A stretch of DNA of 40,633 nucleotides, from the UHGV virus genome UHGV-0140992. The stretch is one strand, 5' to 3'. The DNA is from a virus. The notes below the pieces were generated by a model. It was not told where the DNA came from. It saw nothing but the letters and a program-made list of their open reading frames with translations, and ran no database searches. Below, piece by piece: positions 2,752 through 29,895 of this stretch. The position numbers and the translations under genes are program-made. Every line of letters starts with the position of its first letter. Position 1 is the first letter of the stretch.

Positions 2752-3189
2752 TTAACCAGTTACTTTTGAGCGGATCGGATACGGCGTATTGGCATCAACA
2801 TCAAGACTGATACCAGCAGTGAATTCGCCAGCCGTTAGTGGGCCAGTTGCGACGGAGTAGTTAACACGCAGATATCGCTGAACACCGGCAGGCACCTTTG
2901 CAGAAACAACTCGTTTACCTGCTGTCAGGGCGGTCTTTGCCAGTGCGCCACTATCATAAATAGTGGTCCATGATCTGTTATTCTCACTCGTCTGCAACTG
3001 GATGTTTACAGTTGCATCACCGCTTGCTGCGGCGGCTGTGTTAACCAGCGCCCAAAACTCAAGCGGGTAACCCACGCCGATATCACGACGTTTTCCGTCA
3101 ATTGGACCGAGATCGATTACGTCAGTAGAAGCCGCGGTATTCGTAACCGCCTGAGCTTCGGAGAACATCAACAGTTTGTCGGTGATCAT
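2752..3189 (-). CDS. hypothetical capsid-associated protein, 145 aa
   Basis: ORF track; immediately downstream of the major capsid gene. Confidence 0.4.
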   Translation of the reverse strand: MITDKLLMFSEAQAVTNTAASTDVIDLGPIDGKRRDIGVGYPLEFWALVNTAAAASGDATVNIQLQTSENNRSWTTIYDSGALAKTALTAGKRVVSAKVPAGVQRYLRVNYSVATGPLTAGEFTAGISLDVDANTPYPIRSKVTG

Positions 3190-3204
3190 CTTCTTTCTCC
3201 ATTA

Positions 3205-3224
3205 GTGGGTCTGTTACGACCCAC
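3205..3224 (-). other. stem-loop directly downstream of the capsid gene
   Basis: gtgggtc-tgttac-gacccac, 7-bp stem, about 17 nt after the capsid stop; no U-run. Confidence 0.3.
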
Positions 3225-3240
3225 AGGTTAATAACAGGCG

Positions 3241-4233
3241 TTACACCACGCGGGCTTCTGTTTCCAGAAGCGCATCAGTTTCACGGATTGGTACACCACG
3301 GAATGAAGTCCACCACTCGCCTTCTGTCTCTTTTACGCTGATAGCCAGAGATGTTTTCTCCAGAGACTGCAGATCAAGAGCCTGGCCTACAGTGCGGTTC
3401 ATGTAGAACACCGGGCGGCCCATGCCACGGTTTGGAATGCGATGTAGTGCTTTAACCATCAACTTCGCAATATTTGCGGCAGAGGATGGTTCTGAAAGAT
3501 TGCTGACATCGATGTTTGCAATGCGAACAACATAACGCCAGTCACGCAGAGCAAGTCCGTTATCCCATTTGTAATGGGTGCGATAGCCTTCGTACTTGCC
3601 GCCATTAGCATCTTCCAGTGTCACCTGGCCTTTATCTTCCATCTGGATGCCAGCCTTCTGCCCTTTCGGGAAGATGCCATGCACGGTGTTTTCGCCCCAC
3701 ACCACTAACCAGATTGAGGTGTTATCTGTACCCGTGCCACCAGCATCAATGATGTTCTGAGCATTACCCGCAGACAGGCTGGAATAGCGGGAGGACAGTC
3801 CCATAAACTGCTGAGGGTTAACGCTGGAATCACCATAAAACAGCGTCTGCGCCATCTGCTGATTCATCGCTTCAATAAATGCGCGGTCTTCAGACAGGCG
3901 GAATTCGGCGGTATTGCCGTTCAGATCAGCCAGTGACTTATCGACTTCCGCATAGGTTTCCAGCATGCCAACGGAATCGGTTACCTGCACTGTGGTTGAT
4001 TTGCTTGGCTGTACGCCATAGTTCAGCAAACGCCAGGTAGCTGAAGGTAAACCAGAACGAATGGTGGTTCGGTGTCCGGTAGGAAGGTTCCCTTCGACAA
4101 AAGGCATATCCTGAAGGATCGGGTTAGTTTGACCGAGAAGCTCGATAATCTTATCGACTTTCCCGTTTGGATCGACGCGCTTACCCCAGTCAGCCAGCGT
4201 TAGCGCAGTTAAGCCTTTAACAGCCATTGTCAT
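3241..4233 (-). CDS. major capsid protein, 330 aa
   Basis: ORF track; follows the scaffold gene, typical size; assignment by gene order and composition. Confidence 0.65.
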   Translation of the reverse strand: MTMAVKGLTALTLADWGKRVDPNGKVDKIIELLGQTNPILQDMPFVEGNLPTGHRTTIRSGLPSATWRLLNYGVQPSKSTTVQVTDSVGMLETYAEVDKSLADLNGNTAEFRLSEDRAFIEAMNQQMAQTLFYGDSSVNPQQFMGLSSRYSSLSAGNAQNIIDAGGTGTDNTSIWLVVWGENTVHGIFPKGQKAGIQMEDKGQVTLEDANGGKYEGYRTHYKWDNGLALRDWRYVVRIANIDVSNLSEPSSAANIAKLMVKALHRIPNRGMGRPVFYMNRTVGQALDLQSLEKTSLAISVKETEGEWWTSFRGVPIRETDALLETEARVV

Positions 4234-4241
4234 TTCCTCTC

Positions 4242-4943
4242 TTATTTGCCATAGAGCACTTCGGCCGCACTACGCTGGCCTTCATTACCACCGGTGACCA
4301 TGCCATCTTCAGACATCGCCTTTCCGATTTTCACGAACGTTTTGACCAGATCAGGGTGATTACCCAGCCCGGTGGTGTTCAGATATTCTTTGAGTTCAGG
4401 TGTCCCGAACTGGTCAAGCGCACGCTGTGCGGCGCTAAGGTTAGAAATCAACTTGTCGCCACCGATTTCTTTGTCGGCTTTTACATCCGCAGCCCACTGC
4501 TCGGTTGTTTTCTGCCAGGCTTCTGCCTGGCGCTGCTGAACACCTGCCAGAATCTTCGGATAAGCATCAACCAGCTTTTGCGCTTGCTCGTTGGTCAGGT
4601 TTAGTTCTCGCGCCACCGGCTCGAATTCCTTCAACGCTTCTGTATCCAGCTCTACGCCTTCGGCAGCCTGAAACTCGTACTTTTCAGGCGCACCCTCTGG
4701 TTTATCGCCGTCCTTTTTTTCATCCTGCTTATCGTTTTCAGGCTTTTTGTCATCAGCAGGTTTATCGCCATCAGCAACAGGTTGTGGCTTATCACCTTCC
4801 TGTTGTGATGGATCACCAACTGGAGCAGGGTTATCACCTGCAGGCGCTGACGGTTCTGACGCAGCCGGAGCTGCTCCACCATCGACTGGTTGCTCATTGC
4901 AAAGACGGCGATACAGCAAACGCTCAAATAAATTCATGATCAC
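4242..4943 (-). CDS. scaffolding protein, 233 aa
   Basis: acidic, Pro/Ala/Asp/Lys-rich low-complexity N-terminus; located between portal and capsid. Confidence 0.6.
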   Translation of the reverse strand: MIMNLFERLLYRRLCNEQPVDGGAAPAASEPSAPAGDNPAPVGDPSQQEGDKPQPVADGDKPADDKKPENDKQDEKKDGDKPEGAPEKYEFQAAEGVELDTEALKEFEPVARELNLTNEQAQKLVDAYPKILAGVQQRQAEAWQKTTEQWAADVKADKEIGGDKLISNLSAAQRALDQFGTPELKEYLNTTGLGNHPDLVKTFVKIGKAMSEDGMVTGGNEGQRSAAEVLYGK

Positions 4944-5236
4944 TCCTGTTCACTGGCCTCTTTGGCCATCTTCAAATACTGTTCAGGGCAATGCGCCATA
5001 ACGCGCTGAAACAGTTCCAGCGCCAGATTGCGTTGCCCCTCATTAAATGCCATTGCCATAGCATCCATCGGAGAGATAGCGGAAAACACCCGGCCTTTCT
5101 CCAGCACCGACCAGACAACGCGACGCCCCTGTTCACTGCTCATGACAAAGCGAATGTCATCAATTTCACGCTGTGCCATGTCACGTTGCTTACGGGCGTT
5201 TTCTTCTTTCAGTTGATCGTCTTCGAAATCTGTCAT
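4940..5236 (-). CDS. hypothetical small protein, 98 aa
   Basis: ORF track; overlaps portal stop and scaffold start (translational coupling). Confidence 0.4.
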   Translation of the reverse strand: MTDFEDDQLKEENARKQRDMAQREIDDIRFVMSSEQGRRVVWSVLEKGRVFSAISPMDAMAMAFNEGQRNLALELFQRVMAHCPEQYLKMAKEASEQE

Positions 5237-6912
5237 TGTGATTGCCCACCCTGACCACTAACTGCATTCGCCATAGCTGACAAAACACTCGGATCCGAAG
5301 TTTTAGCTTCGCTTAGCGTCTTGGCACCCTGTGCCGCCGCCATCCCCATCGCCATCATTTGTTGCTGCTGTTGTTGCTGTGCCCGTTGCTGGCGAGCCTG
5401 CTCAACCTGTTCCTGCGGAACAATGACGGTTGGAGACACTCCGGACATATCAGCGAATGCATCGATCGCCTGATCAACGTTGAGTTTGTCGAGAGCTTCT
5501 GGTTTCGCTTGCGCAAGTTGACCAATGAAGTTAACCGTGGACGCCAGACTGGACAGGCCGATAGACTTCTGCGCCTGAGCCATGACGGAAATGTATTCGA
5601 CCTTCAGGGGCATGCCTTCCATCGCGTCAGGCGGTGTCGGCAGCATGTTTTTACGCACCATCATCGAGAAAGCGCGGTCAATGAGAGGATTAAGACATTC
5701 GTCGTTCAGACGCTCCAGAACCGGCCCCAACATCAGAAGTTTTTCTTCTTTCATTTCGATCACCGCTTCAACAGGCATCGAGCGGGTATTGATGTTCTGC
5801 AACATCATGAACAGATCGACAAAGTAGGCGCTGTTAATGATTTGACGGGTGTCCTGAATGTCTGCCACCAAATCTGCTGTACTGGGGTTAACCAGATAAG
5901 CAGGCCTGAAACCATCCTGACCAGTAATCTGATCGATATACGTGATGTCGCCAGGAAGAAGGGAGGCACGCTGATTCTTGAGGGAAGTCGGAGCAACCAT
6001 CGGCGGATTGGTGGCTTTATCAATCAACTGCGACTTGCGCTTCTGGAGAAGCTGCAATGCCTTAACAGGTCCAAGCGCCAGCATACCCGGGCATGATGAT
6101 CCATAAACATCTTCGCCGTTAACTTCCCAGCGCGGAGCCATAATTGGAAACTCATCGAATCCGGACTCACGCAACAACTTGTCGTTATCGCCACCAACCT
6201 CGTAATAAACCGATTTGAATGGCTTGTTCTTGCTATCCAGCTTCGATGTATCGCGGTCAATGTTCGGGTAAACCGAATGCATCACTTCAATCCACTTCTC
6301 GTAGGTGCCGCTTTCCCACATGCTTTTTACGGATTCGCTGACGTTATTTAGCCCGAACTCCTGAACAAGCTGACGAACAGTCATAGAGAACTTGCGAAAA
6401 CAGGTGTCCACACTGCCACGAGGTGAGTTAGCCAGGTAGTAACTGCCTATCGGGAATGGCATTGTGCGAATGATGTCCTCGTCATCCTCCAGCACCGCCA
6501 TTGCACCAGTGCTGTATGTGCCGAGGCTTCCGTATAACTGCGGAAGAGACTGGTAGAGATTCGACTTATTGAACATATCGTTCATGCGGTTCTGAACTGC
6601 CTCAAGCCACAACTTAACAGGGCCATAGTCCATCATTTCAGGATCTGGCGTAGCCAGGCGAAACCACGGACGGGCGGGGCTTGTTATGCCTGACATCATG
6701 CCGCTGGCAAGAGTGCGCGCCGCCATAGTCCCGGTCGAATCAATAATGCGTGTATTGCGTCGATCGTTACGGTTAACCTCAGAAGTCAGAAAGCGGGAAC
6801 CACGCGGGTTGATGTAATCACTCAACTCGCGCCAGTGCGGCTCGAACGACTGACGCTCGCTTTCAAGTTGTGCGAACTGTTTGTTCAATCGCTCTTTAGT
6901 TGTTTCCGCCAT
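5233..6912 (-). CDS. portal (head-to-tail connector) protein, 559 aa
   Basis: downstream of terminase; Gln/Ala/Met-rich C-terminal tail resembles the T7 gp8 C-terminus; GGAG RBS upstream. Confidence 0.8.
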   Translation of the reverse strand: MAETTKERLNKQFAQLESERQSFEPHWRELSDYINPRGSRFLTSEVNRNDRRNTRIIDSTGTMAARTLASGMMSGITSPARPWFRLATPDPEMMDYGPVKLWLEAVQNRMNDMFNKSNLYQSLPQLYGSLGTYSTGAMAVLEDDEDIIRTMPFPIGSYYLANSPRGSVDTCFRKFSMTVRQLVQEFGLNNVSESVKSMWESGTYEKWIEVMHSVYPNIDRDTSKLDSKNKPFKSVYYEVGGDNDKLLRESGFDEFPIMAPRWEVNGEDVYGSSCPGMLALGPVKALQLLQKRKSQLIDKATNPPMVAPTSLKNQRASLLPGDITYIDQITGQDGFRPAYLVNPSTADLVADIQDTRQIINSAYFVDLFMMLQNINTRSMPVEAVIEMKEEKLLMLGPVLERLNDECLNPLIDRAFSMMVRKNMLPTPPDAMEGMPLKVEYISVMAQAQKSIGLSSLASTVNFIGQLAQAKPEALDKLNVDQAIDAFADMSGVSPTVIVPQEQVEQARQQRAQQQQQQQMMAMGMAAAQGAKTLSEAKTSDPSVLSAMANAVSGQGGQSQ

Positions 6913-6926
6913 TTCAATGACTCCGG

Positions 6927-7133
6927 TTACTGACCAAGCAGCGTTTTACCGCTGGTATTAGCGGTTGATGTGTCGCCCTGAGAACCGGTAAGCAGCGTAG
7001 AACTACGACCAGCAGCAGCGCGACGGCGACGAGTTTCTTCGTCGCGGGCATCAACAACGGCGGCATCCTGCTCCTGTGGTGCTGCCTGAACTTCTGGTGT
7101 TGCAGGCACTGATGGTGAGCTACCCATGCACAT
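6927..7133 (-). CDS. possible small protein upstream of portal, 68 aa
   Basis: ORF track; GGAGTCATTGA-ATG context nearly identical to the portal start context. Confidence 0.25.
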   Translation of the reverse strand: MCMGSSPSVPATPEVQAAPQEQDAAVVDARDEETRRRRAAAGRSSTLLTGSQGDTSTANTSGKTLLGQ

Positions 7134-7223
7134 ATCAATGACTCCGTACGCAATTAAATTATTACCAATTTAACCACATATGATTTATTTATCGTAGGTA
7201 GTTGACATTTAACGCACAAATTA

Positions 7224-7238
7224 TTACCTTTCAGGTAA
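7224..7238. promoter_or_regulatory. TTACCTTTCAGGTAA, operator-type inverted repeat (TTACC-N5-GGTAA family)
   Basis: perfect 5-bp half-sites; same 15-mer recurs at 28399; TTGACA hexamer about 20 bp upstream. Confidence 0.45.
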
Positions 7239-7560
7239 CCAAAGAGTTCATTCCGGTTACTAACCTGACTGGCTTGTCGTTAAATTGAACAGGTGGAGTG
7301 AGCTTTTATTTTGAGCAGTACGGCGTATGGCACATGCGCCGATAGCGGTCTGGATACGTTTAAGGGGCACCCTCCCTTGCTCGGGCAAACGAACCAGGTA
7401 GCCGGAATGTGCAAGTCGAGCGGTTTTATTCCGCGCACGGGGATTCACCATCCCGGCGATTCGGTGTGACGCCTCGGAAGAGACGAGGGTACAACGATGA
7501 GAGCATTTATGGAGCCGCGACAAAGTGTGGCGCCTTAACAGGCTAAGTGCTCTCAGCGTT

Positions 7561-7637
7561 GTGGCATTAGCTCAGTTGGACAGAGCAACCGCCTTCTAAG
7601 CGGTTGGTCGCAGGTTCGAATCCTGCATGCCACGCCA
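7561..7637 (+). tRNA. tRNA-Arg (anticodon TCT)
   Basis: cloverleaf folded by hand: acceptor GTGGCAT/ATGCCAC, D-arm GCTC..GAGC, anticodon stem ACCGC/GCGGT with loop CTTCTAA, T-arm GCAGG-TTCGAAT-CCTGC, discriminator G plus CCA; close to E. coli argU. Confidence 0.85.
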
Positions 7638-7680
7638 GAATCACGCCTAAGGACCGTGATGCCAGAAGTTCCAGGTGCTT

Positions 7681-7722
7681 GGCGGTGATGGTTTCCCTTG
7701 AAGGACTATCACCGCCCTTTTT
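7681..7722 (+). terminator. intrinsic terminator downstream of the tRNA
   Basis: GGCGGTGAT ... ATCACCGCC 9-bp stem followed by CTTTTT. Confidence 0.55.
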
Positions 7723-7750
7723 ACAGCAGGACGCCATTGCGATGACTTCA

Positions 7751-7770
7751 TGCTGTAAACCAGTACAGCC
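7751..7770 (+). promoter_or_regulatory. weak LexA-box-like site (CTGT-N8-ACAG)
   Basis: TGCTGTAAACCAGTACAGCC about 70 bp upstream of the 7838 ORF; spacer not AT-rich. Confidence 0.25.
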
Positions 7771-7800
7771 ACGGAAGGCATAACTCATTGCTTCCAGTTC

Positions 7801-7825
7801 GCCCGGTTCGTCCGGGCATTTTTTT
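7801..7825 (+). terminator. intrinsic terminator
   Basis: GCCCGG-ttcgt-CCGGGC followed by ATTTTTTT. Confidence 0.5.
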
Positions 7826-7837
7826 AAGGTGAAAATC

Positions 7838-8170
7838 ATGAAAGAGAAGACTGCAGCTGAGCGCTATGCCGCAGCTATCAATGCCGCGATGGCGATTGTA
7901 AACCTGCGTGAAGAGATTAAAGATCTCCTTGCAATTATCCATAACAACCTGACATGTACAGAGTTGCTTGGCGGTCAGTACAACGGTGAGGCGGTGAAGG
8001 AGGCATTTAAAAATGCCGAGGTAGGAATAATTCCAGCAAACTATGTCAAGGCTGAATGTGTGCTCCTAAAGGCACGAGTGAGTCTGCATGAAGATCCTGG
8101 TAATCTCGGTCGAACTGCAATGCGTTACGTGATAGACGAGTCGAATGCCAAACACAATCTACCGAAATAA
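7838..8170 (+). CDS. hypothetical moron protein, 111 aa (track start 7829 is GTG; ATG at 7838)
   Basis: ORF track; opposite strand to flanking terminase and portal; GGTG RBS. Confidence 0.45.
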   Translation: MKEKTAAERYAAAINAAMAIVNLREEIKDLLAIIHNNLTCTELLGGQYNGEAVKEAFKNAEVGIIPANYVKAECVLLKARVSLHEDPGNLGRTAMRYVIDESNAKHNLPK

Positions 8171-8174
8171 CACC

Positions 8175-8186
8175 GTGACATGTCAC
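8175..8186. repeat. perfect palindrome GTGACATGTCAC, copy 1 of 3
   Basis: exact 12-mer shared with 10440 and 31612; intergenic. Confidence 0.6.
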
Positions 8187-8260
8187 AAACAGACAGCCTA
8201 TGAGCTGGCTTTGTTTTATCCTCACCAGAGGATATCAACGACATTATCCCCACCAGCGGA

Positions 8261-9736
8261 TTAAGCATAGGGATCGTAATCTGTGATGGCCTTGCCTTGC
8301 TGGTTCTGCTGACCGGGAATTCGCAGACGCTTCGACACAGGGAACGCAAACGTCAGCAGTAGCGCATCGCCTTTACCAGGAGAACGCCCAAGTCGCTCTT
8401 TGATATCTTCCTTCGGTTCGATAACGATTTTACCGTCCACTCGAACTTTGTACTCTGCTGCCGACAGGTCGTCCGCTGTTTCCTGGTCATCCAGCATGCC
8501 GCCCAGCCTCAGCCATGTCTTGCATGAATTGAACATCTCCCCACGCTTGTTGAGCATCTGCGGGTCAGTAGACGCGCCACCGAACGGAACAAGTTGCCAT
8601 GTACGACCCCATCCGTCACCGATTGACTTCAGACCGGTTCCGTAACCGAAGTCGATGAACACCGCGTCAGCCTGATACTGGTCTTCAAAGTCAGCGATAC
8701 GCTTCGCCATAATCAGATCGTCGGTAGTCTTGTTGCCAGTCCACAGCACCTTACTGTGTAGCCCCTGCCGCAGGTATATCACCGCGTCATCAACGCCTGA
8801 ATATGCCGGGTCAACACCGATTATCACCGGAGCATGCGCCACCTGCGCAGCGGTTACCACCCGTTTCATTGCCTCATCAGTAAGACCGGTAGGGATAAAC
8901 TGCAATTCAGATGCATCAGGGAATATGCCGCGCACACGGATTTTAACGAAGTCGCTGTCTTCCCCGTAGTCATCAACCCATTTCTGCAACTGCTGTTTGT
9001 TAGTGCCTTCCACCGTTCGGCTGTCAATCTGCGCAGTTTTCCAGCGGTGTTTATATTTGCGGAAACATTCGCGGAAACGTCCGGTATTACGCGTCGGGTT
9101 TCCGAACGCCACCCAGATAATCTCAGTGTCTTCGTCCGTTAGTGCACCCTCGGCAACTTCCCACACCAGATCCGCAATGTTCGACGCTTCATCGAATACC
9201 ACGATGATGCGTTTGCGCTCGTTGTGTAGTCCGGCGAATGCCTCAGTGTTGTGCTCAGACCAGGGGATTGCGTCAGCTCGCCACCGCTTGTCGTGTCCAG
9301 GATCATTGCTGTACATCGCGGTAGCGGTACAGGTAAACCAGTCTTTCGTGATAGCAAGGTTCGACCACTTGATAATTTCCGGCCAGGTCTTCGTTCGTAG
9401 CTGGTTGTCGGTGTTGGCGGTCACCACGACCTTACAATCCTCGCAAGTGGACATGCCCCAGTTGATCAGCATTGAGATGAATGCGGATTTACCAATACCG
9501 TGACCCGAAGCACGTGCCAGCATAAGCGGCTGATAGCGCGTCTCTGGATTCTGCAGGTGATCACGTATCTCTCGGAACGCATCAGCCTGCCACTGACGTG
9601 GGCCGGTAGCATGTGCCAGTTCAGTCCCCTCTTCCCCCCACGGGAACGCATAGAGGGCATAGCCAAGCGGATCGTGAGTGAACCCTGCAATATCCTCGAT
9701 CAACTGCTCTTCAGGAGATAACGCTGTATCTGTCAC
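8261..9736 (-). CDS. terminase large subunit, 491 aa
   Basis: Walker-A-like GHGIGKS; size; GTG start overlapping the small-subunit stop. Confidence 0.85.
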   Translation of the reverse strand: MTDTALSPEEQLIEDIAGFTHDPLGYALYAFPWGEEGTELAHATGPRQWQADAFREIRDHLQNPETRYQPLMLARASGHGIGKSAFISMLINWGMSTCEDCKVVVTANTDNQLRTKTWPEIIKWSNLAITKDWFTCTATAMYSNDPGHDKRWRADAIPWSEHNTEAFAGLHNERKRIIVVFDEASNIADLVWEVAEGALTDEDTEIIWVAFGNPTRNTGRFRECFRKYKHRWKTAQIDSRTVEGTNKQQLQKWVDDYGEDSDFVKIRVRGIFPDASELQFIPTGLTDEAMKRVVTAAQVAHAPVIIGVDPAYSGVDDAVIYLRQGLHSKVLWTGNKTTDDLIMAKRIADFEDQYQADAVFIDFGYGTGLKSIGDGWGRTWQLVPFGGASTDPQMLNKRGEMFNSCKTWLRLGGMLDDQETADDLSAAEYKVRVDGKIVIEPKEDIKERLGRSPGKGDALLLTFAFPVSKRLRIPGQQNQQGKAITDYDPYA

Positions 9737-10329
9737 TGATTACCATCCTGACGTTCTTTGAGTCGCTTCCTGGCTGCTGCTATGCGATCAGCAATTGTCA
9801 CATTCACATTAACATCCAGACGTTCTTTGAACGCGTTGACATCAACATGCTTACCAATCAGCTCAAGGTTCTTCACCTTGTCAGGCCATTTAATTTTTTT
9901 GAGGATTGTCTCTATCGAATCCTCGTTCATGTTCATGATGGTCGATGACAGATCAAAGCCACTAAGCGTAGTGCGCCAGATTTTCGGCCACTCACGGATT
10001 GGTTTAAGGCTCCCATCGTCGTTGAGGATGTCGATCACGTCCATCTGGTCGATCTCCACCAGGCGCATGAGAACGTAATCAGCACTGACGCGCATTCGTT
10101 TGTTGCGCTCCTCCATCAACTCGGCAATCCGTTTTTGAATGCGTTCATCGCGCATCATGACACTGGCTTTAACTGCCGCTGTATTTGGGGAGAATCCTGC
10201 GTTAATCGCTGCCTGAGTCTGGTTTTCAGGCGTTTTGATGTATGACTGGCAATAAGCCTCCTGCATTGCTGTTAGTGGCTTAAATTGCGTTGATTTGCGT
10301 TTATAGGTTTTAGGTTCAGCAGGCATCAT
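9733..10329 (-). CDS. terminase small subunit (track ORF to 10407; likely start MMPAEPK near 10329)
   Basis: basic/helical protein immediately upstream of TerL; the N-terminal extension in the track is encoded by a DNA tandem repeat. Confidence 0.65.
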   Translation of the reverse strand: MMPAEPKTYKRKSTQFKPLTAMQEAYCQSYIKTPENQTQAAINAGFSPNTAAVKASVMMRDERIQKRIAELMEERNKRMRVSADYVLMRLVEIDQMDVIDILNDDGSLKPIREWPKIWRTTLSGFDLSSTIMNMNEDSIETILKKIKWPDKVKNLELIGKHVDVNAFKERLDVNVNVTIADRIAAARKRLKERQDGNQ

Positions 10330-10336
10330 AACCACC

Positions 10337-10365
10337 GTGGTAATAGTTACCGTTGTGGTAATAGT
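10337..10365. promoter_or_regulatory. tandem GTGGTAATAGT repeat containing operator-type site TTACCGTTGTGGTAA (10347..10361)
   Basis: two 11-bp direct repeats 18 bp apart just upstream of the terminase operon; perfect TTACC-N5-GGTAA. Confidence 0.45.
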
Positions 10366-10372
10366 ACCATGC

Positions 10373-10398
10373 AAAATAAAGCCGCCATAGTTGGCGGC
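10373..10398 (-). terminator. intrinsic terminator
   Basis: gccgcca-tag-ttggcggc hairpin with a T-run on the minus strand. Confidence 0.45.
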
Positions 10399-10439
10399 AG
10401 TATTCAAAACCCATCAAATTCATCATGCATAATCTACTC

Positions 10440-10451
10440 GTGACATGTCAC
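10440..10451. repeat. perfect palindrome GTGACATGTCAC, copy 2 of 3
   Basis: exact 12-mer; overlaps the stop of the 115-aa ORF, upstream of the terminase operon. Confidence 0.6.
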
Positions 10452-10795
10452 ACTATTAATTTCGTTTCATGCCAGCCTTTAGTCACCCAGCATTGCGAGT
10501 CACCATTACACGGGCATGAATTAACTGGAACTCTCTCGCCGCACTTACCGCAACATTTTCTGCTGATCGATTTTATACGCCCGCGCACGCGTGCATCATC
10601 CTGGCGGATCAGTAACGCGATGTACTCGGCCATTTCATAGGGATCGCGACCAGGGCGCCGGGCGGCGCAGTTCCGCGCCAGCATTTCCTGCTCCTGCTTA
10701 TCCAGCACCAGTTCAATTTTGCGCTCACCGGCGGCGGACTGCCGAGCGCGCTGCGCGGCTTTGCGTTCTGCGGGGGATTTAGCCACGAATCGCAC
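10448..10795 (-). CDS. hypothetical protein with C-terminal Cys cluster, 115 aa
   Basis: ORF track; CCGKCGERVPVNSCPC motif; last gene before the late operon. Confidence 0.45.
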   Translation of the reverse strand: MRFVAKSPAERKAAQRARQSAAGERKIELVLDKQEQEMLARNCAARRPGRDPYEMAEYIALLIRQDDARVRGRIKSISRKCCGKCGERVPVNSCPCNGDSQCWVTKGWHETKLIV

Positions 10796-10901
10796 TCCAC
10801 GCCAGATTGATTAATGACTCCCAGGTAATATAAACCCGGATACCAGCAGCCAGGCCGAAACCAATCACCATGGCATAAAGCAGAGCGTTGCACTTGTTCA
10901 T
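10779..10901 (-). CDS. possible small hydrophobic protein, 40 aa (MNKCNALLYAMVIGFGLAAG...)
   Basis: AGGAGGT RBS; start overlaps the stop of the DUF551 gene (TGATG); inner part of track ORF 10779..11048. Confidence 0.3.
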   Translation of the reverse strand: MNKCNALLYAMVIGFGLAAGIRVYITWESLINLAWSAIRG

Positions 10902-11908
10902 CACTTCACCTCCTGCGGCGGTTCTGGTAGCGGCATCCAGAACAAGGCGTTCCCTAACCACGATAAAGTGCCGTCGCTCAACTCCACGTATTCCCCTTGT
11001 ACCTGTCCTGCCATATACTCGCCGTGCTTTGAATAAATTAAAATCCAATCATCTTGAGGGGGCATTCGCTCACTACAGCTTATCCAACCATCCGGAGTCA
11101 CCGGAAGCGAGAACGGCAGCACATCTCTGTGAACAAGTTTTTGCTGTGACAGGTTATCCAGAACTTTCTGTACTGCTGCATCACCGAATACACCAAGCGC
11201 ATCTGCCATAACTCCTACAACCTGATAAGCCTCAGCGCATACCGTGGATAAACCATCCGGAATATCCGGATAGTTGCCTGCCAGTCTACGCAAAACAGCC
11301 TTAACAGCCTCAATACGGTCATCATCGTAACTTTCCGCCGTATCTATGCGGTCGAGCATGATGATTGCGTTATCAATATCAGGATTGCCGGTCCACTCAT
11401 TACCGCGATTGGATTCGGCAGCCTGGTTGCCGCGTACTGGTTGATTGTCGGCTTTACCCAGTCTGTCGTCGCTGCATGAATGCCCTTCCAGCCAGGCCAA
11501 TGCTTGTCGCATGAAATACGCAATATGTTTGCCGTGGTAATCGTCTTCATCGATGTGAAAAGCGATACTACGAATGTATTCAATTGCGTTTTCAATGGCC
11601 TCTAACGCTATCGGCGCTGGCGGAGTGGTATATAGTTTTCGACATTTGTATATCCAACCGGCATGGTCAGGCGTGTCTGTAAAACGCAAATCGTCTTCGT
11701 AGCACTCACGACTACGTTCTTTCCATTCCGTCCACGGAACACCGCTATTCCAGGTGGGGCGAGTGCAGGACTGATACAGAACAGGCTCTGCTTCCAGCGA
11801 TGCCAGAGCAATTTCATAAGCCAGGCGCTCAATATTGTCTCGCACGTCCAGGCTGCCGATTCGCTCTCTGATTTCTTTAATCAGTTCTTTGTCGGTAAAA
11901 GTTGTCAT
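10901..11908 (-). CDS. DUF551-type prophage protein, 335 aa
   Basis: C-terminal region resembles the DUF551 family common in enterobacterial prophages (recall). Confidence 0.5.
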   Translation of the reverse strand: MTTFTDKELIKEIRERIGSLDVRDNIERLAYEIALASLEAEPVLYQSCTRPTWNSGVPWTEWKERSRECYEDDLRFTDTPDHAGWIYKCRKLYTTPPAPIALEAIENAIEYIRSIAFHIDEDDYHGKHIAYFMRQALAWLEGHSCSDDRLGKADNQPVRGNQAAESNRGNEWTGNPDIDNAIIMLDRIDTAESYDDDRIEAVKAVLRRLAGNYPDIPDGLSTVCAEAYQVVGVMADALGVFGDAAVQKVLDNLSQQKLVHRDVLPFSLPVTPDGWISCSERMPPQDDWILIYSKHGEYMAGQVQGEYVELSDGTLSWLGNALFWMPLPEPPQEVK

Positions 11909-11918
11909 GTGTTAGTCC

Positions 11919-12182
11919 TTATCCTGCTGTGCTTTCAACTGATGAGGGGAACAAAATCTTTTCATCAAACCCTGCATTCATATCATGAACAGCAACACAC
12001 CAATCCATTGACGAACGATTATCAAGAGCCTCCATGATTTCATCCATGCGGCGCAGGTCATACAGGTAAATGCTTTTATCGCCAATGGTGTAAAAACCAA
12101 TTTTTTTCGGTGATGGGCAGCGATCAAGAACGTCCTGTAATTCATTCAACCATGCCCGTTCTTTTTTTGTTAAAGTTGCCAT
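11919..12182 (-). CDS. hypothetical protein, 87 aa
   Basis: ORF track; co-oriented. Confidence 0.4.
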   Translation of the reverse strand: MATLTKKERAWLNELQDVLDRCPSPKKIGFYTIGDKSIYLYDLRRMDEIMEALDNRSSMDWCVAVHDMNAGFDEKILFPSSVESTAG

Positions 12183-12183
12183 A

Positions 12184-12714
12184 TCACTCTCCTTTGATGC
12201 GAATGCCAGTGGTACTCATTCTCCTGATTTCCCAGAGCACACGAGGAACACCACCGTTTCCGACCGGATCGCGTTTACTCCGCAGGGCGACGCTTGATTC
12301 CGCCCAGCTTTTTCTTGGAGGAAGCTCTTTCACACGAACAAAACCAGCTGCGCGAAGAGATGCTCCTGATTCATCTGCCCGGGTGTACGTAATACAACGT
12401 TGATAACCCATAGCTTTTGCTGCCCGCCAGACAGCACCATAAAGCGCGCTGTTAGCGTTGCGTTCTCCTGTGGTACATGTGCGATTTACTTCAAGCGTTA
12501 ATCCATCGTCCAAATGTCGTGCAACAGGTCGACCGGCTGTCGCCACACCTATCAATTCTCCGGCATCATTTCTCAGACCAATGCTGAATTTATGCCCCAC
12601 CGGGGGTTTATTGTGTCGGTGATGTCTGGATATAAATGCCTTCGCAACACGAAGAGTAACCGGTGAAATCTGCACTCTCACTCTCCTTTGATACCAATGT
12701 TTACAGTCTGGCAA
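12184..12714 (-). CDS. hypothetical protein, 176 aa (possible acetyltransferase-like fold)
   Basis: ORF track; weak GNAT-like motif; C-terminus IRIKGE matches the neighbouring Ea22-like gene. Confidence 0.4.
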   Translation of the reverse strand: MPDCKHWYQRRVRVQISPVTLRVAKAFISRHHRHNKPPVGHKFSIGLRNDAGELIGVATAGRPVARHLDDGLTLEVNRTCTTGERNANSALYGAVWRAAKAMGYQRCITYTRADESGASLRAAGFVRVKELPPRKSWAESSVALRSKRDPVGNGGVPRVLWEIRRMSTTGIRIKGE

Positions 12715-13406
12715 GCTTCTCTGAGCACCCAGTCAATAGCGTCTTTCCATGCTCCGGTTTCGACTGACGGATTTTCACGCTTAACCTGTTCATAGAAGCG
12801 CACTGCTTTAACCAGTCCTTCCGGTACTACTGGCGATGGCTGTTTAGCTTCTAAATCAGCAATTCTGTCAACCACGGCATCGACAGCATCTGAAAAGCCG
12901 AACCAGTTACTCCACTCCGGTCTGTCCCCGGTTGCTGCAAAGTACATATCAGCTAAAGCAGACTCAGCATGGTCACGCTCATTGATGAGTTGCTCTTCGC
13001 TTTTCTCCAGTTCAGCAATACGATTACTTCCATCCGAGATAACACCTTCGTAATACTCACGCTGCTCGTTGAGTTTTGATTTTGTCTCCTCAAGCTCAAC
13101 ACGCAGCTTCCCTACCGTTAGCGCAATATCCTCGTTCTCCTGGTCGCGGCGTTTGATGTATTGCTGGTTTCTTTCCCGTTCATCCAGCAGTGCAAGCACG
13201 GTAGCCGGATTAGCCTTGGCAACAAAATCCCGGACTGGCTTACAATCAATCTCCGCAATGGGTTGATACGATGTGTAGCCATGCTGTCTTGTATAACTAC
13301 CGTGACGAATAACGAAAAAATCACCATTTATTTTTTTAGCCTGCCACTTATCTTCACCGGCTTTCTCTGCCGCTTCACGCAGTGCATGATAGTTAATTTT
13401 GTTCAC
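12678..13406 (-). CDS. Ea22-like protein, 242 aa
   Basis: coiled-coil-rich protein in the nin/ea region; family assigned by recall. Confidence 0.5.
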   Translation of the reverse strand: MNKINYHALREAAEKAGEDKWQAKKINGDFFVIRHGSYTRQHGYTSYQPIAEIDCKPVRDFVAKANPATVLALLDERERNQQYIKRRDQENEDIALTVGKLRVELEETKSKLNEQREYYEGVISDGSNRIAELEKSEEQLINERDHAESALADMYFAATGDRPEWSNWFGFSDAVDAVVDRIADLEAKQPSPVVPEGLVKAVRFYEQVKRENPSVETGAWKDAIDWVLREACQTVNIGIKGE

Positions 13407-14008
13407 TGGTTGCCTCCTTTGCGAAGCTCTGCGGCAAAGTCAACTAACCACTCGGTCATTTCAACCTTCCCTACCAGGTCTGAACCAGGAAACATACAGC
13501 AATCACTCTGCGCCGCTTTGAAATCCTTATACTCATATTCCTGAGCCACCAGATTTTTTGCAGCTTCTATAACAGCATCCACCCCCTGCGCCCGTACTTC
13601 AGCCAGGAAAGCGTCGGTGGCTTGGGTTTCGATATCGTTAATTTCAGGAAGAATCTCTTCCCATGTAGCGATATCGCCATTCAAATGCCATCCGGCAATT
13701 CCACTGGAGTTATCCGCAACACTGCGAACGGCTTCAATAGTTTCATGCATTGCCGCATTCTCCGCTGCCAGCGCCGAAAACTTCTCGTGTGCCAACTTAA
13801 CAGCCGCATCAGCCTGCTTAATTGACTCAATCGCTTTCTGCTGGTCTTCGGCCAGCGCATTAGCACGCACCAGTTGCACTTCCAGTTGCGTTGCCAAATC
13901 GCTGATCAGCTTTGCCACACTGCGCATATCAACGGCACCACATTCTGCTTTCAGTTCCGAAGCCATCTCATGCCCGGCGGCAACTAACCCTTTGATATTA
14001 CTTTCCAT
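13403..14008 (-). CDS. Ea22-like protein, 201 aa
   Basis: ORF track; acidic coiled-coil composition. Confidence 0.45.
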   Translation of the reverse strand: MESNIKGLVAAGHEMASELKAECGAVDMRSVAKLISDLATQLEVQLVRANALAEDQQKAIESIKQADAAVKLAHEKFSALAAENAAMHETIEAVRSVADNSSGIAGWHLNGDIATWEEILPEINDIETQATDAFLAEVRAQGVDAVIEAAKNLVAQEYEYKDFKAAQSDCCMFPGSDLVGKVEMTEWLVDFAAELRKGGNQ

Positions 14009-14069
14009 CTTTACCCTCGCTTATCCACATAACTTATTGATTACATTGATAACTAAAAAGATCGTCGAT

Positions 14070-14414
14070 TCAGAACTCTTCGATGTTCCAGCCACCACCT
14101 GCTTTCTTTGGTTTAACCGTTACCCCGATGATTCGGAACGGATACTGATCTGCGGCGACTTTGGTTTTCACCCTGGCGTCGTCGGTCCAGAAACCTTTCA
14201 CTTCGTGCAGTTCCATCTCTCCGGTGGCGAGCATCACAGCGAAATCGGGCGTATAGAACGTGTTGTCAGCTAACCGCAGCTTGATACCCTCGAATCGATA
14301 CCAGGCGATTTCCCCTGCACGTTTACGCTGCTCAAGGTGCTGGCAATACGCAGATTCTGTTTTGTTCATCTGGCCTGTTTTGAGTCGACCAAGAGCCTGT
14401 ATCTGTTTTCTCAT
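14070..14414 (-). CDS. DUF1064-type phage protein, 114 aa
   Basis: resembles DUF1064 family (recall). Confidence 0.5.
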   Translation of the reverse strand: MRKQIQALGRLKTGQMNKTESAYCQHLEQRKRAGEIAWYRFEGIKLRLADNTFYTPDFAVMLATGEMELHEVKGFWTDDARVKTKVAADQYPFRIIGVTVKPKKAGGGWNIEEF

Positions 14415-14417
14415 GAT

Positions 14418-14494
14418 TTACCTCTAAGGTAATTGAAAACCATATAAGACACGAAATCAATAGAGTTTAGAATATTTTGTTACCTTGTAGGTAA
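14418..14494. promoter_or_regulatory. two operator-type sites TTACCTCTAAGGTAA (14418..14432) and TTACCTTGTAGGTAA (14480..14494)
   Basis: perfect half-sites, 62 bp apart, between the P-like gene end and the DUF1064 gene start. Confidence 0.45.
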
Positions 14495-14503
14495 TTGTTG
14501 AGG

Positions 14504-14528
14504 CGTAAAAAAATGCGCTATCGCGCTG
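14504..14528 (-). terminator. weak intrinsic terminator after the P-like gene
   Basis: short GCGC hairpin with a 7-T run on the minus strand. Confidence 0.3.
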
Positions 14529-14531
14529 GTA

Positions 14532-15308
14532 TTACTTGATAAATCCTGCCGCCTTTCCCCGCCTGTATTCCTCCATCAGCCACTGCGCCGGTGTTATTCC
14601 CCCAAGGGTGGCGGCGTTAGGCATGCACCCGAAACTTCGCCCTGGTGGATGGTAAACGTCTCTCCCTGTGTCCGGAGGTGTACTCATGGGCTCTGGCTTT
14701 GCCTGTATGCTGATCACCGGATCGGGTATCTGCTGTCCGGAAGCCACCTTTTTCGCCCAATCATCGAGCAGCCTGCGCGCGTGTTTCTCAACCTCACTCT
14801 CGCTAAGCTGGCGCTGATACATTGCACGACGGGTATCACATACGACCCAGTACATAACCGGATGCCGCCACGGGAATCTTTCGGGACCACCAGGATATAA
14901 ACTTTTTTCCTTGCTGTACCGGTGAAACTCCGCCATCACATCGTCAATGGTGACGCCAAGAACCATCTTGCTGTCTTTGCACCACTTGATGAATTGCCCT
15001 GGCGACGGCCAGAACGGAGATTCACTGGCGCGGGCGTGGCGCATACCAGCGTTAACCTGTTCCATTGTAGTGATCCCATTCTCCAGAAACGCAAGCATCC
15101 ATTGCTTACGGAATTCATTAAGTTTGTTCTGCTCCCTTATGGTCGAAACGCTTGCAGGAAATGCAGCCTGTAACTGGACAAATAGTTCATTGAAAATTCT
15201 AGCAACCTGCTCCTTTTTGCCATTGCTGTCACGCCGCTCTTCATGCACAGCAACACCATGCTCACGTAAGCGATCGTACTCATTGAGAAGTTCTGGAGTT
15301 GATTTCAT
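14532..15308 (-). CDS. replication protein P-like (helicase loader), 258 aa
   Basis: clear similarity to lambda P, e.g. FPAS...EQN...RKQWMLAFLENGITTMEQVNAGMR. Confidence 0.8.
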   Translation of the reverse strand: MKSTPELLNEYDRLREHGVAVHEERRDSNGKKEQVARIFNELFVQLQAAFPASVSTIREQNKLNEFRKQWMLAFLENGITTMEQVNAGMRHARASESPFWPSPGQFIKWCKDSKMVLGVTIDDVMAEFHRYSKEKSLYPGGPERFPWRHPVMYWVVCDTRRAMYQRQLSESEVEKHARRLLDDWAKKVASGQQIPDPVISIQAKPEPMSTPPDTGRDVYHPPGRSFGCMPNAATLGGITPAQWLMEEYRRGKAAGFIK

Positions 15309-16110: not shown

Positions 16111-16303
16111 AGGTTTCCCCTCTTGCACTCTTTAGTGCACAAGCAAATTCATTACGATGGCGGTTGGCGCTATTCATTGCACATTCAACACATGTTCCGT
16201 TCAGAACATACCTTTCAGAGAGATGGCCGTGACGGCACCGCTTTCCTGTGAAATAGCGATTTAACCCGGCTTTTGCGGCCTCCATTCTGGTTACTATCTT
16301 CAA
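16091..16303 (-). CDS. hypothetical small Cys/His-rich protein, 70 aa (cII position)
   Basis: ORF track; between the Cro-like and O-like genes. Confidence 0.4.
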   Translation of the reverse strand: MKIVTRMEAAKAGLNRYFTGKRCRHGHLSERYVLNGTCVECAMNSANRHRNEFACALKSARGETYGKQLD

Positions 16304-16430: not shown

Positions 16431-16451
16431 ACAGAGGGTTGTGGCTGGATA

Positions 16452-29880: not shown

Positions 29881-29895
29881 GTGGAGATAACCACC

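Follow-up and report, generated by a model that had tools for sequence, protein, structure and literature searches.

Results

The Terminase-Portal Gap

The window (i.e., the whole 40,633-nucleotide stretch of UHGV virus genome UHGV-0140992) represents a phiV10/epsilon15-type Uetakevirus (prophage), in which a gap of 1127 bp separates the start of the gp3-like gene (position 7133) from the stop codon of terL (position 8261). A first-pass annotation had described this region as an insertion of about 1.3 kb that interrupts the run of genes from terminase to portal. There is indeed a unit on the opposite strand between terminase and portal, but it is smaller than claimed, and because a counterpart region is found at the same position in all relatives, it is a shared variable slot, common across the genus between terL and gp3/portal, rather than an insertion peculiar to one genome. 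The features listed at the time (an operator, a tRNA-Arg(UCU), two plus-strand terminators, an open reading frame [ORF], and a 12-bp palindrome) are all present at or near the places assigned to them. What was overlooked is a conserved structured RNA (7319–7556) that fills most of the supposed spacer 5′ of the tRNA, and that the ORF occupies a cassette slot. Unlike the RNA and the cassette slot, the tRNA, terminators, and operator are commonplace elements that have already been annotated in relatives.

At the left edge, a putative sigma-70 promoter can be read on the plus strand (7202–7230), with TTGACA at 7202–7207, a 17-nt spacer, and TACCTT at 7225–7230; it was not called in a consensus scan because the −10 hexamer matches at just three of six positions. 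The −10 hexamer and the likely start site are overlapped by the operator TTACCTTTCAGGTAA (7224–7238), a perfect copy of a palindrome that occurs at 16 sites in the window when up to two mismatches are allowed, versus 0.96 expected. These sites cluster near a helix-turn-helix (HTH) repressor gene (16837–17421) and a Bro-N antirepressor gene (29881–30606). In epsilon15, the annotation marks the homologous site as repressor-binding, and six phages of Escherichia, Salmonella, and Klebsiella (alignment A6) show no change in TTGAC or the operator. The operator-type site suspected at this boundary is a genuine operator. The label "moron" (a lysogeny-expressed insert) fares less well: judged by its sequence, the accessory unit has terminators of its own, but its sole properly spaced promoter carries the repressor operator, which suggests expression on de-repression instead. 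It should be noted that the operator could instead, or also, control a divergent gp3-portal promoter and that the −10 hexamer is weak, both of which count against the main reading put forward in the Discussion.

tRNA-Arg(UCU) and AGA Usage

A tRNA-Arg gene with anticodon UCU and an encoded CCA end is located at 7561–7637 on the plus strand. It is predicted by ARAGORN (anticodon tct at position 35) and scores 73.3 bits against the Rfam tRNA family (RF00005; Infernal, E = 1e-15, full model, gathering threshold 29), in agreement with the earlier description of a well-formed tRNA. Annotated copies are known from O157 typing phages 9 and 10, phiv142-3, SPN9TCW, and a Klebsiella ST512 phage, as well as from many E. 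coli prophages and from RefSeq prophages; the phiV10 and SPN1S groups have this very gene in the corresponding place, with no material difference from the copy seen here, and the block flanking it is 98%–99% identical to the window in the phiV10 group. The tRNA has been lost in epsilon15, and BCE049 and E2348/69 have aberrant tRNA-like sequences instead.

The idea that the tRNA may supply the rare AGA codon is plausible, given that AGA is used at 8.5 per 1000 codons in the window versus 3.9 in a 49-kb sample of MG1655 scored alike (∼2.2-fold). AGA use does not divide simply between late and early genes, since AGA codons are concentrated in early genes and in the tailspike and ejection-protein genes, with 16 in the tailspike gene (25175–28294); the head genes adjoining the tRNA (2752–10335) contain about one.

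Terminators, Leader, and the LexA-like String

Two intrinsic terminators are predicted downstream of the tRNA on the plus strand, as noted earlier; each consists of a hairpin followed by a U-tract, and both are conserved in relatives. T1 (7681–7725; −22.8 kcal/mol, z = −5.0) has a 14-bp stem (7681–7716) and the U-tract CUUUUU. T2 (7801–7825; −13.1 kcal/mol, z = −4.4) has the form GCCCGG-UUCGU-CCGGGC plus U7, with six G-C pairs in the stem (7801–7817), which is followed by AUUUUUUU; the terminator ends 12 nt before the start codon of the ORF and is kept in all eight aligned relatives, among which SPN9TCW and epsilon15 show compensatory changes in the stem. Between them lies a conserved leader (7717–7800, plus strand) with hairpins at ∼7720–7759 and 7773–7795 in the predicted fold and with the blocks ACGCCATTGCGATGAC, GCTGTAAACC, and GCCAnGGAAGGCA invariant across Escherichia, Salmonella, and Klebsiella phages (alignment A4). 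The entire block of T1, leader, T2, Shine-Dalgarno sequence, and ATG is conserved in eight relatives. Neither a promoter scan nor inspection of alignment A4 revealed a promoter between T1 and the ATG, so expression of the ORF needs read-through.

The leader also contains the string CTGTAAACCAGTACAG (7753–7768), which fits CTGT-N8-ACAG and led the first-pass annotation to see here a lysogeny-type moron with its ORF possibly under LexA (SOS) control via 7751–7770 and its tRNA present only for AGA decoding. Although the pattern itself, the ∼2.2-fold excess of AGA over the host sample, and the arrangement as an opposite-strand unit with its own terminators all speak for this explanation, we regard it as very improbable. 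CTGT-N8-ACAG occurs three times in the window versus 0.63 expected, which is not significant for the pattern alone, and a near-perfect consensus LexA box is found elsewhere (28453–28468). The spacer AAACCAGT is not AT-rich, and the site agrees at 13 of 20 positions with the LexA consensus. In epsilon15, SPN9TCW, E2348/69, and BCE049, the ACAG half is replaced (CGTAAGCC and similar) despite conservation of the flanking leader, and the left half, GCUGUAAA, serves as one arm of a conserved hairpin, with UUUACAGC in the T1 tail as its pairing partner. Finally, the promoter scan found no promoter overlapping the site, T2 stands between it and the ORF, and the promoter that does lie upstream bears the prophage repressor operator.

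The Cargo ORF and Its Cassette Slot

The ORF (7838–8170, plus strand) encodes 110 residues when read from its ATG and would encode 113 from a GTG at 7829, so the ORF annotated earlier is real but its length of 111 residues is not. A Shine-Dalgarno sequence, AAGGTG (7826–7831), is positioned 6 nt 5′ of the ATG. The protein is predicted to be all-alpha (an AlphaFold2 model with a pLDDT of 57 was too low for use) and belongs over its full length to an orphan family, phrog_27507 (E = 3.5e-75), which has no assigned function. A search of 5.8 billion proteins turned up only 15 clusters of it, all of them in Enterobacteriaceae; no match was obtained in Pfam at E ≤ 1, in PADLOC, or by tblastn against 50,697 phage records. 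The same family is found in the same slot of Klebsiella oxytoca prophages.

Homology between the window and its relatives breaks at 7832–7843 and resumes at 8165–8174, i.e., the gene in this slot is swapped from start to stop between relatives, with sharp cassette boundaries, and in one relative (LB858871) the slot is empty. The occupants in phiV10 and epsilon15 (phiV10p03 and epsilon15p50) match PF13876 (E = 6e-35 and 4e-37), the Acb4 family of anti-CBASS sponges (PMC11722364), and that in PF9285 is Tad2-like, matching PF11195 (E = 1e-23), the Tad2 family (bioRxiv 10.1101/2025.07.12.664507). The cargo proteins of CE10 and E2348/69 have 139 and 143 residues, respectively. The presence of such genes in the slot of relatives makes the orphan ORF a candidate counter-defense gene; judged by position alone, the 110-residue protein is most likely another early counter-defense protein.

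The right edge of the cassette is marked by the palindrome GTGACATGTCAC (8175–8186), where the earlier annotation had placed the boundary. It is a repeated palindrome, with three exact copies in the window (at 8175, 10440, and 31612) versus 0.08 expected, and in nine relatives it is almost unchanged, save for a single substitution in E2348/69. It is followed, where the cargo ORF and terL converge, by a weak hairpin with a T-rich tail (8194–8215; about −8 kcal/mol); relatives have a better stem at this position, and a rho-independent terminator is annotated there in phiV10.

A Conserved Structured RNA Upstream of the tRNA

The structured RNA 5′ of the tRNA is roughly 240 nt long (7319–7556) and is encoded on the plus strand, as its abundant G-U pairs establish. 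Its core (7319–7508) comprises helices P1, P2a/b, P5, and P7 and the proposed pseudoknots PK1 and PK2, and is recognized by our covariance model R1 as a single copy in the window (160.7 bits, E = 1.6e-48). In an alignment of 26 sequences, 97.4% of cells pair and 12 of 33 base pairs show compensatory change, a result that is not reached by any of 500 shuffles; in 80 distinct sequences, 97.0% pair. The core is followed by a closing stem, P8, formed around a variable insert by GAGAGCA (7499–7505) and UGCUCUC (7548–7554), and then by an AGCGUU tail that abuts the tRNA (stem and tail together, 7499–7560). P8 is also seen in the minimum free energy (MFE) fold, and its arms covary across loci (AAGAGCA/TGCTCTT, AGCGCAC/GTGCGCT, and GAGGGCA/TGCTCTC, the latter with a G-U pair). 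A GTTGTGG (GUUGUGG) junction occurs at 96 of 124 loci and is followed by sequences resembling the acceptor and D-arm of a tRNA. One of the pseudoknots is supported by covariation and one is proposed: for PK1, a second collection scan with a different conserved block as anchor yielded only singleton changes, one of them G-U compatible and two disruptive, so that PK1 remains an invariant complementarity without covariation support. A 19-nt stretch, GGUAGCCGGAAUGUGCAAG (alignment A3, columns 89–107), is nearly invariant, with one variable position among the sequences aligned, from Enterobacteriaceae to a Stenotrophomonas phage; its exact 18-nt core is also found in an Azonexus genome.

No family in Rfam 15 matches 7300–7562, even at E ≤ 10 with relaxed filters, and at related loci Rfam returned only the tRNA and two chance-level sub-threshold matches, none of them over the RNA element. 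The chance-level matches that we discarded were a RyhB-like one (22 bits) on T2, a Plastid-ycf2 one on the tRNA antisense strand, and a DicF-like one. In the literature searched, we found no description of this RNA: svsR, a prophage sRNA near cI, is a different element, a 77-nt segment inside the 3′ end of cI (PMC12803456), and the Pas sRNAs and the Minerva preprint are unrelated. The RNA is a real, undescribed family that is named in no database.

Distribution and Genomic Settings of the RNA

The RNA is present in 1840 of 5426 complete E. coli genomes (about a third) and annotated in none of them. Among phages, it is carried by P1 and P7, by lambdoid phages (Stx2c-converting and cdtI-type), and by podoviruses of Salmonella and Klebsiella, in all of them within a repressor-controlled early operon. 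In lambdoid phages that lack an annotated N gene (the annotation is absent in cdtI, NU14, and mEp460), it lies in the PL leader: after a cI terminator comes a PL promoter close to consensus (TTGACA-16-CATAAT in cdtI, TTGACA-18-TACATT in mEp390) and, ∼45 nt past the predicted start site in these two phages, the RNA. About 58 lambdoid loci, whose repressors belong to four different families, share this placement. In P1 and P7, the RNA is part of the C1-controlled ban operon, and in a Stenotrophomonas phage a strong terminator (2224–2240) is found directly 3′ of the RNA, before the early genes.

In 33 loci, the 5′ end of a tRNA is 4–6 nt away from the RNA, and in 18 loci a tRNA 3′ end is at a distance of about 15 nt. 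Convincing intrinsic terminators 3′ of the RNA are seen in 36 of 39 Uetakevirus, 25 of 43 lambdoid, and 8 of 16 P1-like loci, and those in the latter two groups are mostly weak; an association between the RNA and downstream terminators thus holds in the Uetakeviruses and is weak as a general rule. In epsilon15, both the RNA core and the tRNA have been lost, yet T1, T2, and the Acb4-family ORF are kept.

Discussion

We propose that the terL-gp3/portal gap constitutes an accessory operon, self-contained and read from the opposite strand, headed by an RNA that acts in the manner of put; operon and antiterminator taken together as one proposal come close to an even call. Given the operator over its promoter, the operon would be kept off in the lysogen and switched on by de-repression or infection. 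Its transcript would open with the ∼240-nt pseudoknotted RNA, continue 4–6 nt on with tRNA-Arg(UCU), then pass T1, the conserved leader, and T2 to reach the cargo ORF, whose Shine-Dalgarno sequence and ATG directly follow T2, and end at the repeated palindrome and the hairpin shared with the convergent terL gene. By established tRNA processing, an RNase P cut at the 5′ end of the tRNA would release the RNA, and the tRNA itself would add AGA decoding capacity to a phage whose AGA use is about twice that of the host sample. The role of the RNA would be to carry RNA polymerase past T1 and T2 and on into the cargo gene. For the function of the RNA taken alone, put-like, cis-acting processive antitermination is our best guess, and a tentative one. 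A role at the head of early operons is suggested by the placement of the RNA after PL in lambdoid phages, in the ban operon of P1 and P7, and before a terminator and the early genes in the Stenotrophomonas phage, and by the absence of a called promoter between T1 and the ATG in the window. It should be noted that the RNA is not homologous to put, that many lambdoid and P1-like loci lack convincing terminators, that epsilon15 keeps T1, T2, and the ORF without the RNA core, and that the flanking tRNA or tRNA-like acceptor and D-arm sequences, and the terminator directly 3′ of the RNA in some phages, fit a discrete stable RNA equally well; all of these count against antitermination.

Such a discrete RNA, possible but on balance unlikely, would be an early, trans-acting phage product excised by tRNA processing enzymes (RNase P cutting just before the tRNA or tRNA-like sequence that lies downstream in Uetakeviruses and lambdoid phages, 3′ trimming of the upstream tRNA-Ile in P1) that binds a conserved host protein or RNA for host takeover or counter-defense, with T1 merely ending its transcript. 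The near-invariance of GGUAGCCGGAAUGUGCAAG from Enterobacteriaceae to the Stenotrophomonas phage, the recurrence of its core in Azonexus, the pseudoknots (one covariation-supported, one proposed), the short distances to tRNA ends (33 and 18 loci), the GUUGUGG junction into tRNA-like sequence (96 of 124 loci), the terminator directly 3′ in the Stenotrophomonas phage and T1 after the tRNA here, and the counter-defense cargo of relatives all speak for this reading. However, no host partner can be named, the constant 5′ position in long early operons, in the orientation of the genes, is not required of a molecule acting in trans, and expression of the cargo ORF behind T1 and T2 is left unexplained. 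A bolder version, which we consider improbable, makes the RNA a new phage class that is itself a counter-defense or host-takeover molecule within a three-part early anti-defense operon, together with the tRNA and a sponge-type gene; it could then be an aptamer or decoy for an immune signal or host nuclease, or a tRNA-linked RNA freed by RNase P.

About as improbable is that the RNA gates or processes early phage transcripts, either as a leader that senses a ligand (riboswitch) or as a ribozyme that cleaves itself. Invariant junctions and loops combined with variable, covarying stems and pseudoknots form a pattern typical of aptamers and ribozymes, the RNA does sit in operon 5′ leaders, and T2, set against the Shine-Dalgarno sequence, resembles an expression platform. 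But T2 is 290 nt downstream, past the tRNA and T1, and just 3′ of the core one finds P8 and the tRNA and no evident terminator/antiterminator alternative; moreover, known riboswitch and ribozyme models give no match even at E ≤ 10, and there is no known candidate ligand. That 7319–7556 is instead a small protein gene or a DNA-level site (for recombination or packaging) is hardly credible: although ORFs of 45–87 residues can be drawn across it on both strands, and hypothetical proteins are annotated there in phiV10, mEp460, and Ayreon, the length of the copies varies in steps that are not multiples of three and break every frame, substitutions in the stems are compensatory with G-U pairs on one strand only, and the element appears at unrelated genome positions in three phage groups.

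Whatever its function, an RNA with a complex fold and strong covariation has gone unannotated in 1840 of the 5426 complete E. coli genomes. An antiterminator role would account for the working of the early-left operon in lambdoid phages without an annotated N gene, and the problem solved by put would then have a second RNA solution, unrelated to the first; a role in trans would make it a new phage effector RNA. Either reading can be tested directly in established systems (P1, phiV10, and mEp460). The slot behind the fixed leader, which alternates among Acb4-family genes, Tad2-like genes, and small genes without assigned function, is a compact place to seek new anti-defense proteins, including the 110-residue orphan.

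The put RNAs bind the zinc-binding domain of the RNA polymerase beta-prime subunit and suppress termination in cis. The RNA described here resembles them (putL and putR of HK022, putL of HK639) in lying just 3′ of a repressor-controlled early promoter (PL), in the orientation of the operon, in lambdoid phages in which an N gene is unannotated; in being a compact structured RNA with invariant unpaired nucleotides; and in being followed, both here and in the Stenotrophomonas phage, by intrinsic terminators that would have to be read through. The two are not homologous in sequence or structure as far as the covariance model can tell: run with filters off, R1 found no match in the 22.5–31.5 kb region of HK022 or anywhere in the HK639 genome, its annotated putL (34187–34312) included. 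They also differ in size and complexity (about 190–240 nt with at least five helices plus pseudoknots, versus ∼70 nt and two stem-loops for put) and in number (one copy per phage, versus putL plus putR), and the RNA studied here occurs in addition in P1 and, beside tRNAs, in podoviruses.

ROOL, GOLLD, and the stable RNAs C and D of the T4 tRNA cluster are structured noncoding RNAs of phages and prophages that have no assigned function, are often found beside tRNA genes, and are probably co-processed with the tRNAs. The present RNA shares with all of them its structured, noncoding nature and its place next to a tRNA; it is much smaller than ROOL and GOLLD, has no Rfam match, and keeps a consistent position in the leader of early operons. 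As to the cargo gene, the window ORF matches neither PF13876 nor PF11195. It shares with the Acb4-family and Tad2-like genes of relatives the short length of the protein and the exact place in the cassette, preceded by an identical arrangement of leader, T2, and Shine-Dalgarno sequence.

A variable slot between the terminase and portal genes

By DNA searches, the region is assigned to the phiV10/epsilon15 group (genus Uetakevirus), with 98-99% identity to phiV10, vB_EcoP_ZX5, HEMP4, and O157 typing phages 9 and 10, one replaced segment excepted. The late genes lie on the minus strand: the portal gene (5233-6912), a 68-aa gp3-like gene (6927-7133), the large terminase gene terL (8261-9736), and the small terminase gene (9733-10407). 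Where the first-pass annotation had described an insertion of roughly 1.3 kb between terminase and portal, there is indeed an opposite-strand unit, but the gp3-terL gap is 1127 bp, and as all relatives compared carry a region here, it is a variable slot that they share rather than an insertion private to this genome.

The unit is bounded on the left by an operator-type site, TTACCTTTCAGGTAA (7224-7238), and on the right by a 12-bp palindrome, GTGACATGTCAC (8175-8186), as first proposed; repeat statistics bear out both. The operator family (consensus TTACCT-N3-AGGTAA) has 16 sites in the window at up to two mismatches against 0.96 expected, including 14418, 14480, 16719-16781, 17479-17555, 29519, 29612, and 30679; clusters lie on both sides of an HTH repressor gene (16837-17421) and upstream of a Bro-N antirepressor gene (29881-30606), and the equivalent of the 7224-7238 site is annotated as repressor-binding in the epsilon15 record. 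The operator overlaps a putative promoter, TTGACA-17-TACCTT, whose TTGAC is, together with the operator, invariant in an alignment of six phages from three genera; we infer that this promoter drives the operon and that the prophage repressor represses it. The palindrome, judged by its recurrence, is a second repeated site family, with three exact copies (8175-8186, 10440-10451, and 31612-31623, against 0.08 expected) and one with a single mismatch (5173-5184). It is kept in Escherichia and Salmonella relatives, being near-invariant in nine of them with one substitution in E2348/69, and one copy immediately precedes the small terminase gene. A near-invariant 60-nt block, TTAAATTATTACCAATTTAACCACATATGATTTATTTA, lies within 7134-7201 between the gp3-like gene and the TTGACA and is kept in phages of Escherichia, Salmonella, and Klebsiella. 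It probably serves to regulate the divergent gp3-portal late transcript; the minus strand of 7134-7201 shows no recognisable sigma-70 promoter.

A conserved pseudoknotted RNA precedes the tRNA

About 80 nt downstream of the putative promoter begins a structured RNA (7319-7556, plus strand; core 7319-7508) that the first-pass annotation had overlooked. Over the 240 nt preceding the tRNA, identity is ~83% to unannotated intergenic DNA of lambdoid phages (cdtI, mEp460, 2H10, Ayreon, and the Stx2c phages) and ~80% to the tRNA-Ile/ban interval of P1 and P7. In the alignment, invariant blocks alternate with variable stems bearing compensatory changes; a protein-coding reading was rejected, as differences in copy length disrupt every frame. 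For the proposed structure (P1, P2a/b, P5, P7, and two pseudoknots; 26 diverse sequences), 97.4% of cells pair, and both sides change in 12 of 33 pairs, a value reached in none of 500 shuffles; slid controls pair at 26-42%. With 80 distinct sequences aligned to the model, 97.0% of cells pair, with two-sided changes in 12 of 23 pairs. The closing stem P8 (7499-7505 with 7548-7554) covaries too. Pseudoknot PK2 shows one compensatory pair (CACC:GGUG to AACC:GGUU), and PK1 (GCACAU:AUGUGC) is invariant, so that covariation gives no proof of it. Frequent G-U pairs in this predicted fold indicate that the RNA, like the tRNA, lies on the plus strand.

This RNA family seems to be undescribed: Rfam 15 gave no match to the region even at E ≤ 10, the put RNAs of HK022 and HK639 showed no homology, and no description was found in the accessible (non-subscription) literature, beyond which an earlier one is possible. 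A weak covariance-model match at 19029-19180 (minus strand; 13.3 bits, E about 0.004 with rough calibration) is probably due to chance. Of the RNA, epsilon15 keeps only the P1 hairpin (3546-3629 in its sequence, 33.7 bits), the core and the tRNA being lost; it retains both terminators, the leader between them, and an Acb4-family ORF. Its record annotates an RNaseIII site (3450-3549) in the leader just 5′ of the P1 remnant.

The RNA is widespread and recurs in repressor-controlled early operons

Among 5426 complete E. coli genomes, 1840 carry the core, at 1920 chromosomal and 554 plasmid places; in 60 records drawn from all parts of the ranking, none of the matches overlaps an annotated feature. 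The RNA occurs in at least 120 IMG/VR contigs and in a Stenotrophomonas phage; 27 GTDB species representatives contain the exact 18-mer, most of them Enterobacteriaceae, alongside Azonexus and four MAG contigs from outside the Proteobacteria (Dysgonamonadaceae, Oscillospiraceae, Bacteroides, and Bacillota).

We surveyed the contexts of 138 RNA loci. At 33, all in the Uetakevirus slot, tRNA-Arg(UCU) begins 4-6 nt after the RNA; at 18, which show the P1 arrangement, tRNA-Ile(CAU) ends ~15 nt upstream of the RNA and ban follows; and at ~58 a same-strand cI-type repressor gene (HTH plus S24), from one of four families, precedes the RNA by 95-155 nt. The order in cdtI is cI stop, terminator, near-consensus promoter (TTGACA-16-CATAAT), and RNA ~45 nt past the predicted start, and mEp390 is alike. 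This placement makes the RNA the leader of the early-left (PL) operon; a cI 3′ UTR was rejected, given the intervening terminator and promoter. In P7 the operon bearing the RNA is under C1 operators, and in the Stenotrophomonas phage a strong terminator stands after the RNA, before the early genes. A repressor-controlled early operon is thus the common theme. One IMG/VR contig carries tandem copies downstream of a cI-like repressor gene (minus strand, 4786-4959 and 3979-4154; 165 and 120 bits), with an opposite-strand 166-aa ORF between them and another opposite-strand ORF after the second, and looks as if moron insertions had been accompanied by duplication of the RNA.

The tRNA and AGA codon usage

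The tRNA-Arg (anticodon TCT; 7561-7637, plus strand) is called by ARAGORN and scores 73.3 bits with the Rfam tRNA model, in agreement with the first reading. That it supplies the rare AGA codon is plausible, with a modest effect: scored on a greedy ORF set of 11,943 codons, the window has 102 AGA (8.5 per 1000) and 60 AGG (5.0 per 1000), against 3.9 and 2.5 per 1000 in a 49-kb MG1655 segment scored in the same way, but the head and terminase genes (2752-10335) have only ~1 AGA in ~2400 codons. AGA codons are found chiefly in the early genes (10448-16682), the 1039-aa tailspike (25175-28294; 16 AGA), and the large ejection/tail proteins (31781-38573; 20 AGA), an unevenness that suggests different origins of the modules or different constraints on their expression. 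A role against tRNA-targeting defences is possible, as a candidate only.

Aberrant tRNA-like sequences take the place of the tRNA in E. coli BCE049 (about 2957-3170 in the extracted locus) and E2348/69 (3233-3345). Both start with GTGGTG or GTGGTT, end with CACCACAACC, share GGGGAATGGG, and are rejected by ARAGORN. The E2348/69 copy, annotated by PGAP as a pseudogenic tRNA-Gly, has recognisable D and T arms and ~55 nt in place of the anticodon arm; in that of BCE049 (~215 nt), a hairpin resembles a D arm and the T-arm region is non-canonical. Downstream of lambdoid copies of the RNA comes a third sequence resembling an acceptor plus D arm, GTGGTAATCCGCGAAATGGCGCGG.

Terminators, leader, and exchangeable cargo

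Two plus-strand terminators, as originally noted, follow the tRNA and are borne out by sequence and folding energy: T1 (7681-7725; stem 7681-7716, -22.8 kcal/mol) and T2 (7801-7825; stem 7801-7817 then U7, -13.1 kcal/mol). In the leader between them, CTGTAAACCAGTACAG (7753-7768) matches CTGT-N8-ACAG and had been noted as a weak LexA-like site that possibly regulates the ORF. Three such strings occur in the window against 0.63 expected. An alignment of eight relatives from Escherichia, Salmonella, and Klebsiella shows strong conservation of the leader around 7753, yet the ACAG half is absent from epsilon15, SPN9TCW, E2348/69, and BCE049. The conserved half, GCUGUAAA, pairs in the predicted fold with UUUACAGC at the T1 tail, and a promoter scan found none overlapping the site; SOS control of the ORF is therefore not supported. 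A better candidate for the phage's SOS input is another of the three strings, the near-consensus box CTGTATAAATATACAG (28453-28468), 40 nt after a perfect repressor operator (28399-28413) and just upstream of an 85-aa plus-strand ORF (28490-28747) with no Pfam match.

The cargo ORF (7838-8170, plus strand; ATG at 7838) encodes 110 aa, one fewer than first reported. Homology to relatives extends to 7832-7843 (T2, Shine-Dalgarno, and ATG) and returns at 8165-8174 (stop codon and palindrome). Between these points the slot holds a PF13876 protein by Pfam match in phiV10 (phiV10p03) and epsilon15 (epsilon15p50), a "Gp49 family protein" (PF13876 by RefSeq name) in most of the E. coli prophages listed, a PF11195 Tad2-like domain protein in PF9285, DUF2829-annotated proteins in a Klebsiella ST512 phage, unknown proteins of 139 and 143 aa in CE10 and E2348/69, and nothing in LB858871; the 110-aa protein occupies it in the window, BCE049, and Klebsiella oxytoca prophages. 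Of these families, PF13876 corresponds to the Acb4 sponges directed against CBASS (PMC11722364) and PF11195 to Tad2, the anti-Thoeris sponge (10.1101/2025.07.12.664507). For the 110-aa protein, neither Pfam nor PADLOC gives a match, and its PHROG is an unannotated one. The protein has only 15 clusters among 5.8 billion proteins and an all-helical AlphaFold2 model of low confidence (pLDDT 57); its position in the slot makes it a counter-defence candidate. Positions 7100-8300 are covered to at least 80% in only 2 of 5426 complete E. coli genomes, and as BCE049, the one of these two inspected, lacks a canonical tRNA, tRNA-Arg and the 110-aa cargo occur together in none of the listed complete genomes inspected. 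The tRNA, terminators, operator, and Acb4-type neighbours are already known or annotated.

Possible functions of the RNA

The comparisons establish the parts of the unit with their order and conservation, the structure of the RNA, and the exchange of cassettes; release of the RNA by RNase P, like the promoter, its repression, and the role of the ORF, is inferred. T1 and T2 separate the only plausible promoter from the ORF, whose ribosome-binding site comes right after T2, and as genera share this arrangement, some means of read-through is required. The lambdoid phages cdtI, NU14, and mEp460, which carry the RNA, lack an annotated N gene, and the position of the RNA at the early promoters of such phages parallels that of HK022 putL (PMC9378689). 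Together with the terminators before the ORF, this leads us to favour, tentatively and at somewhat less than an even chance, cis-acting processive antitermination by the RNA. Three points count against that reading: the lack of homology to known put RNAs, the many lambdoid and P1-like loci without convincing downstream terminators, and the retention of T1, T2, and the ORF in epsilon15 after loss of the RNA core and tRNA. The main rival, which we consider only a little less likely, is that the RNA acts in trans as a stable species cut out by tRNA processing; this fits both the tRNA and tRNA-like flanks and the terminators directly after the RNA. That the RNA is a riboswitch or ribozyme seems quite improbable.

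The operator sites of the window resemble the C1 operators of P1 in being scattered over the genome instead of confined to one immunity region.
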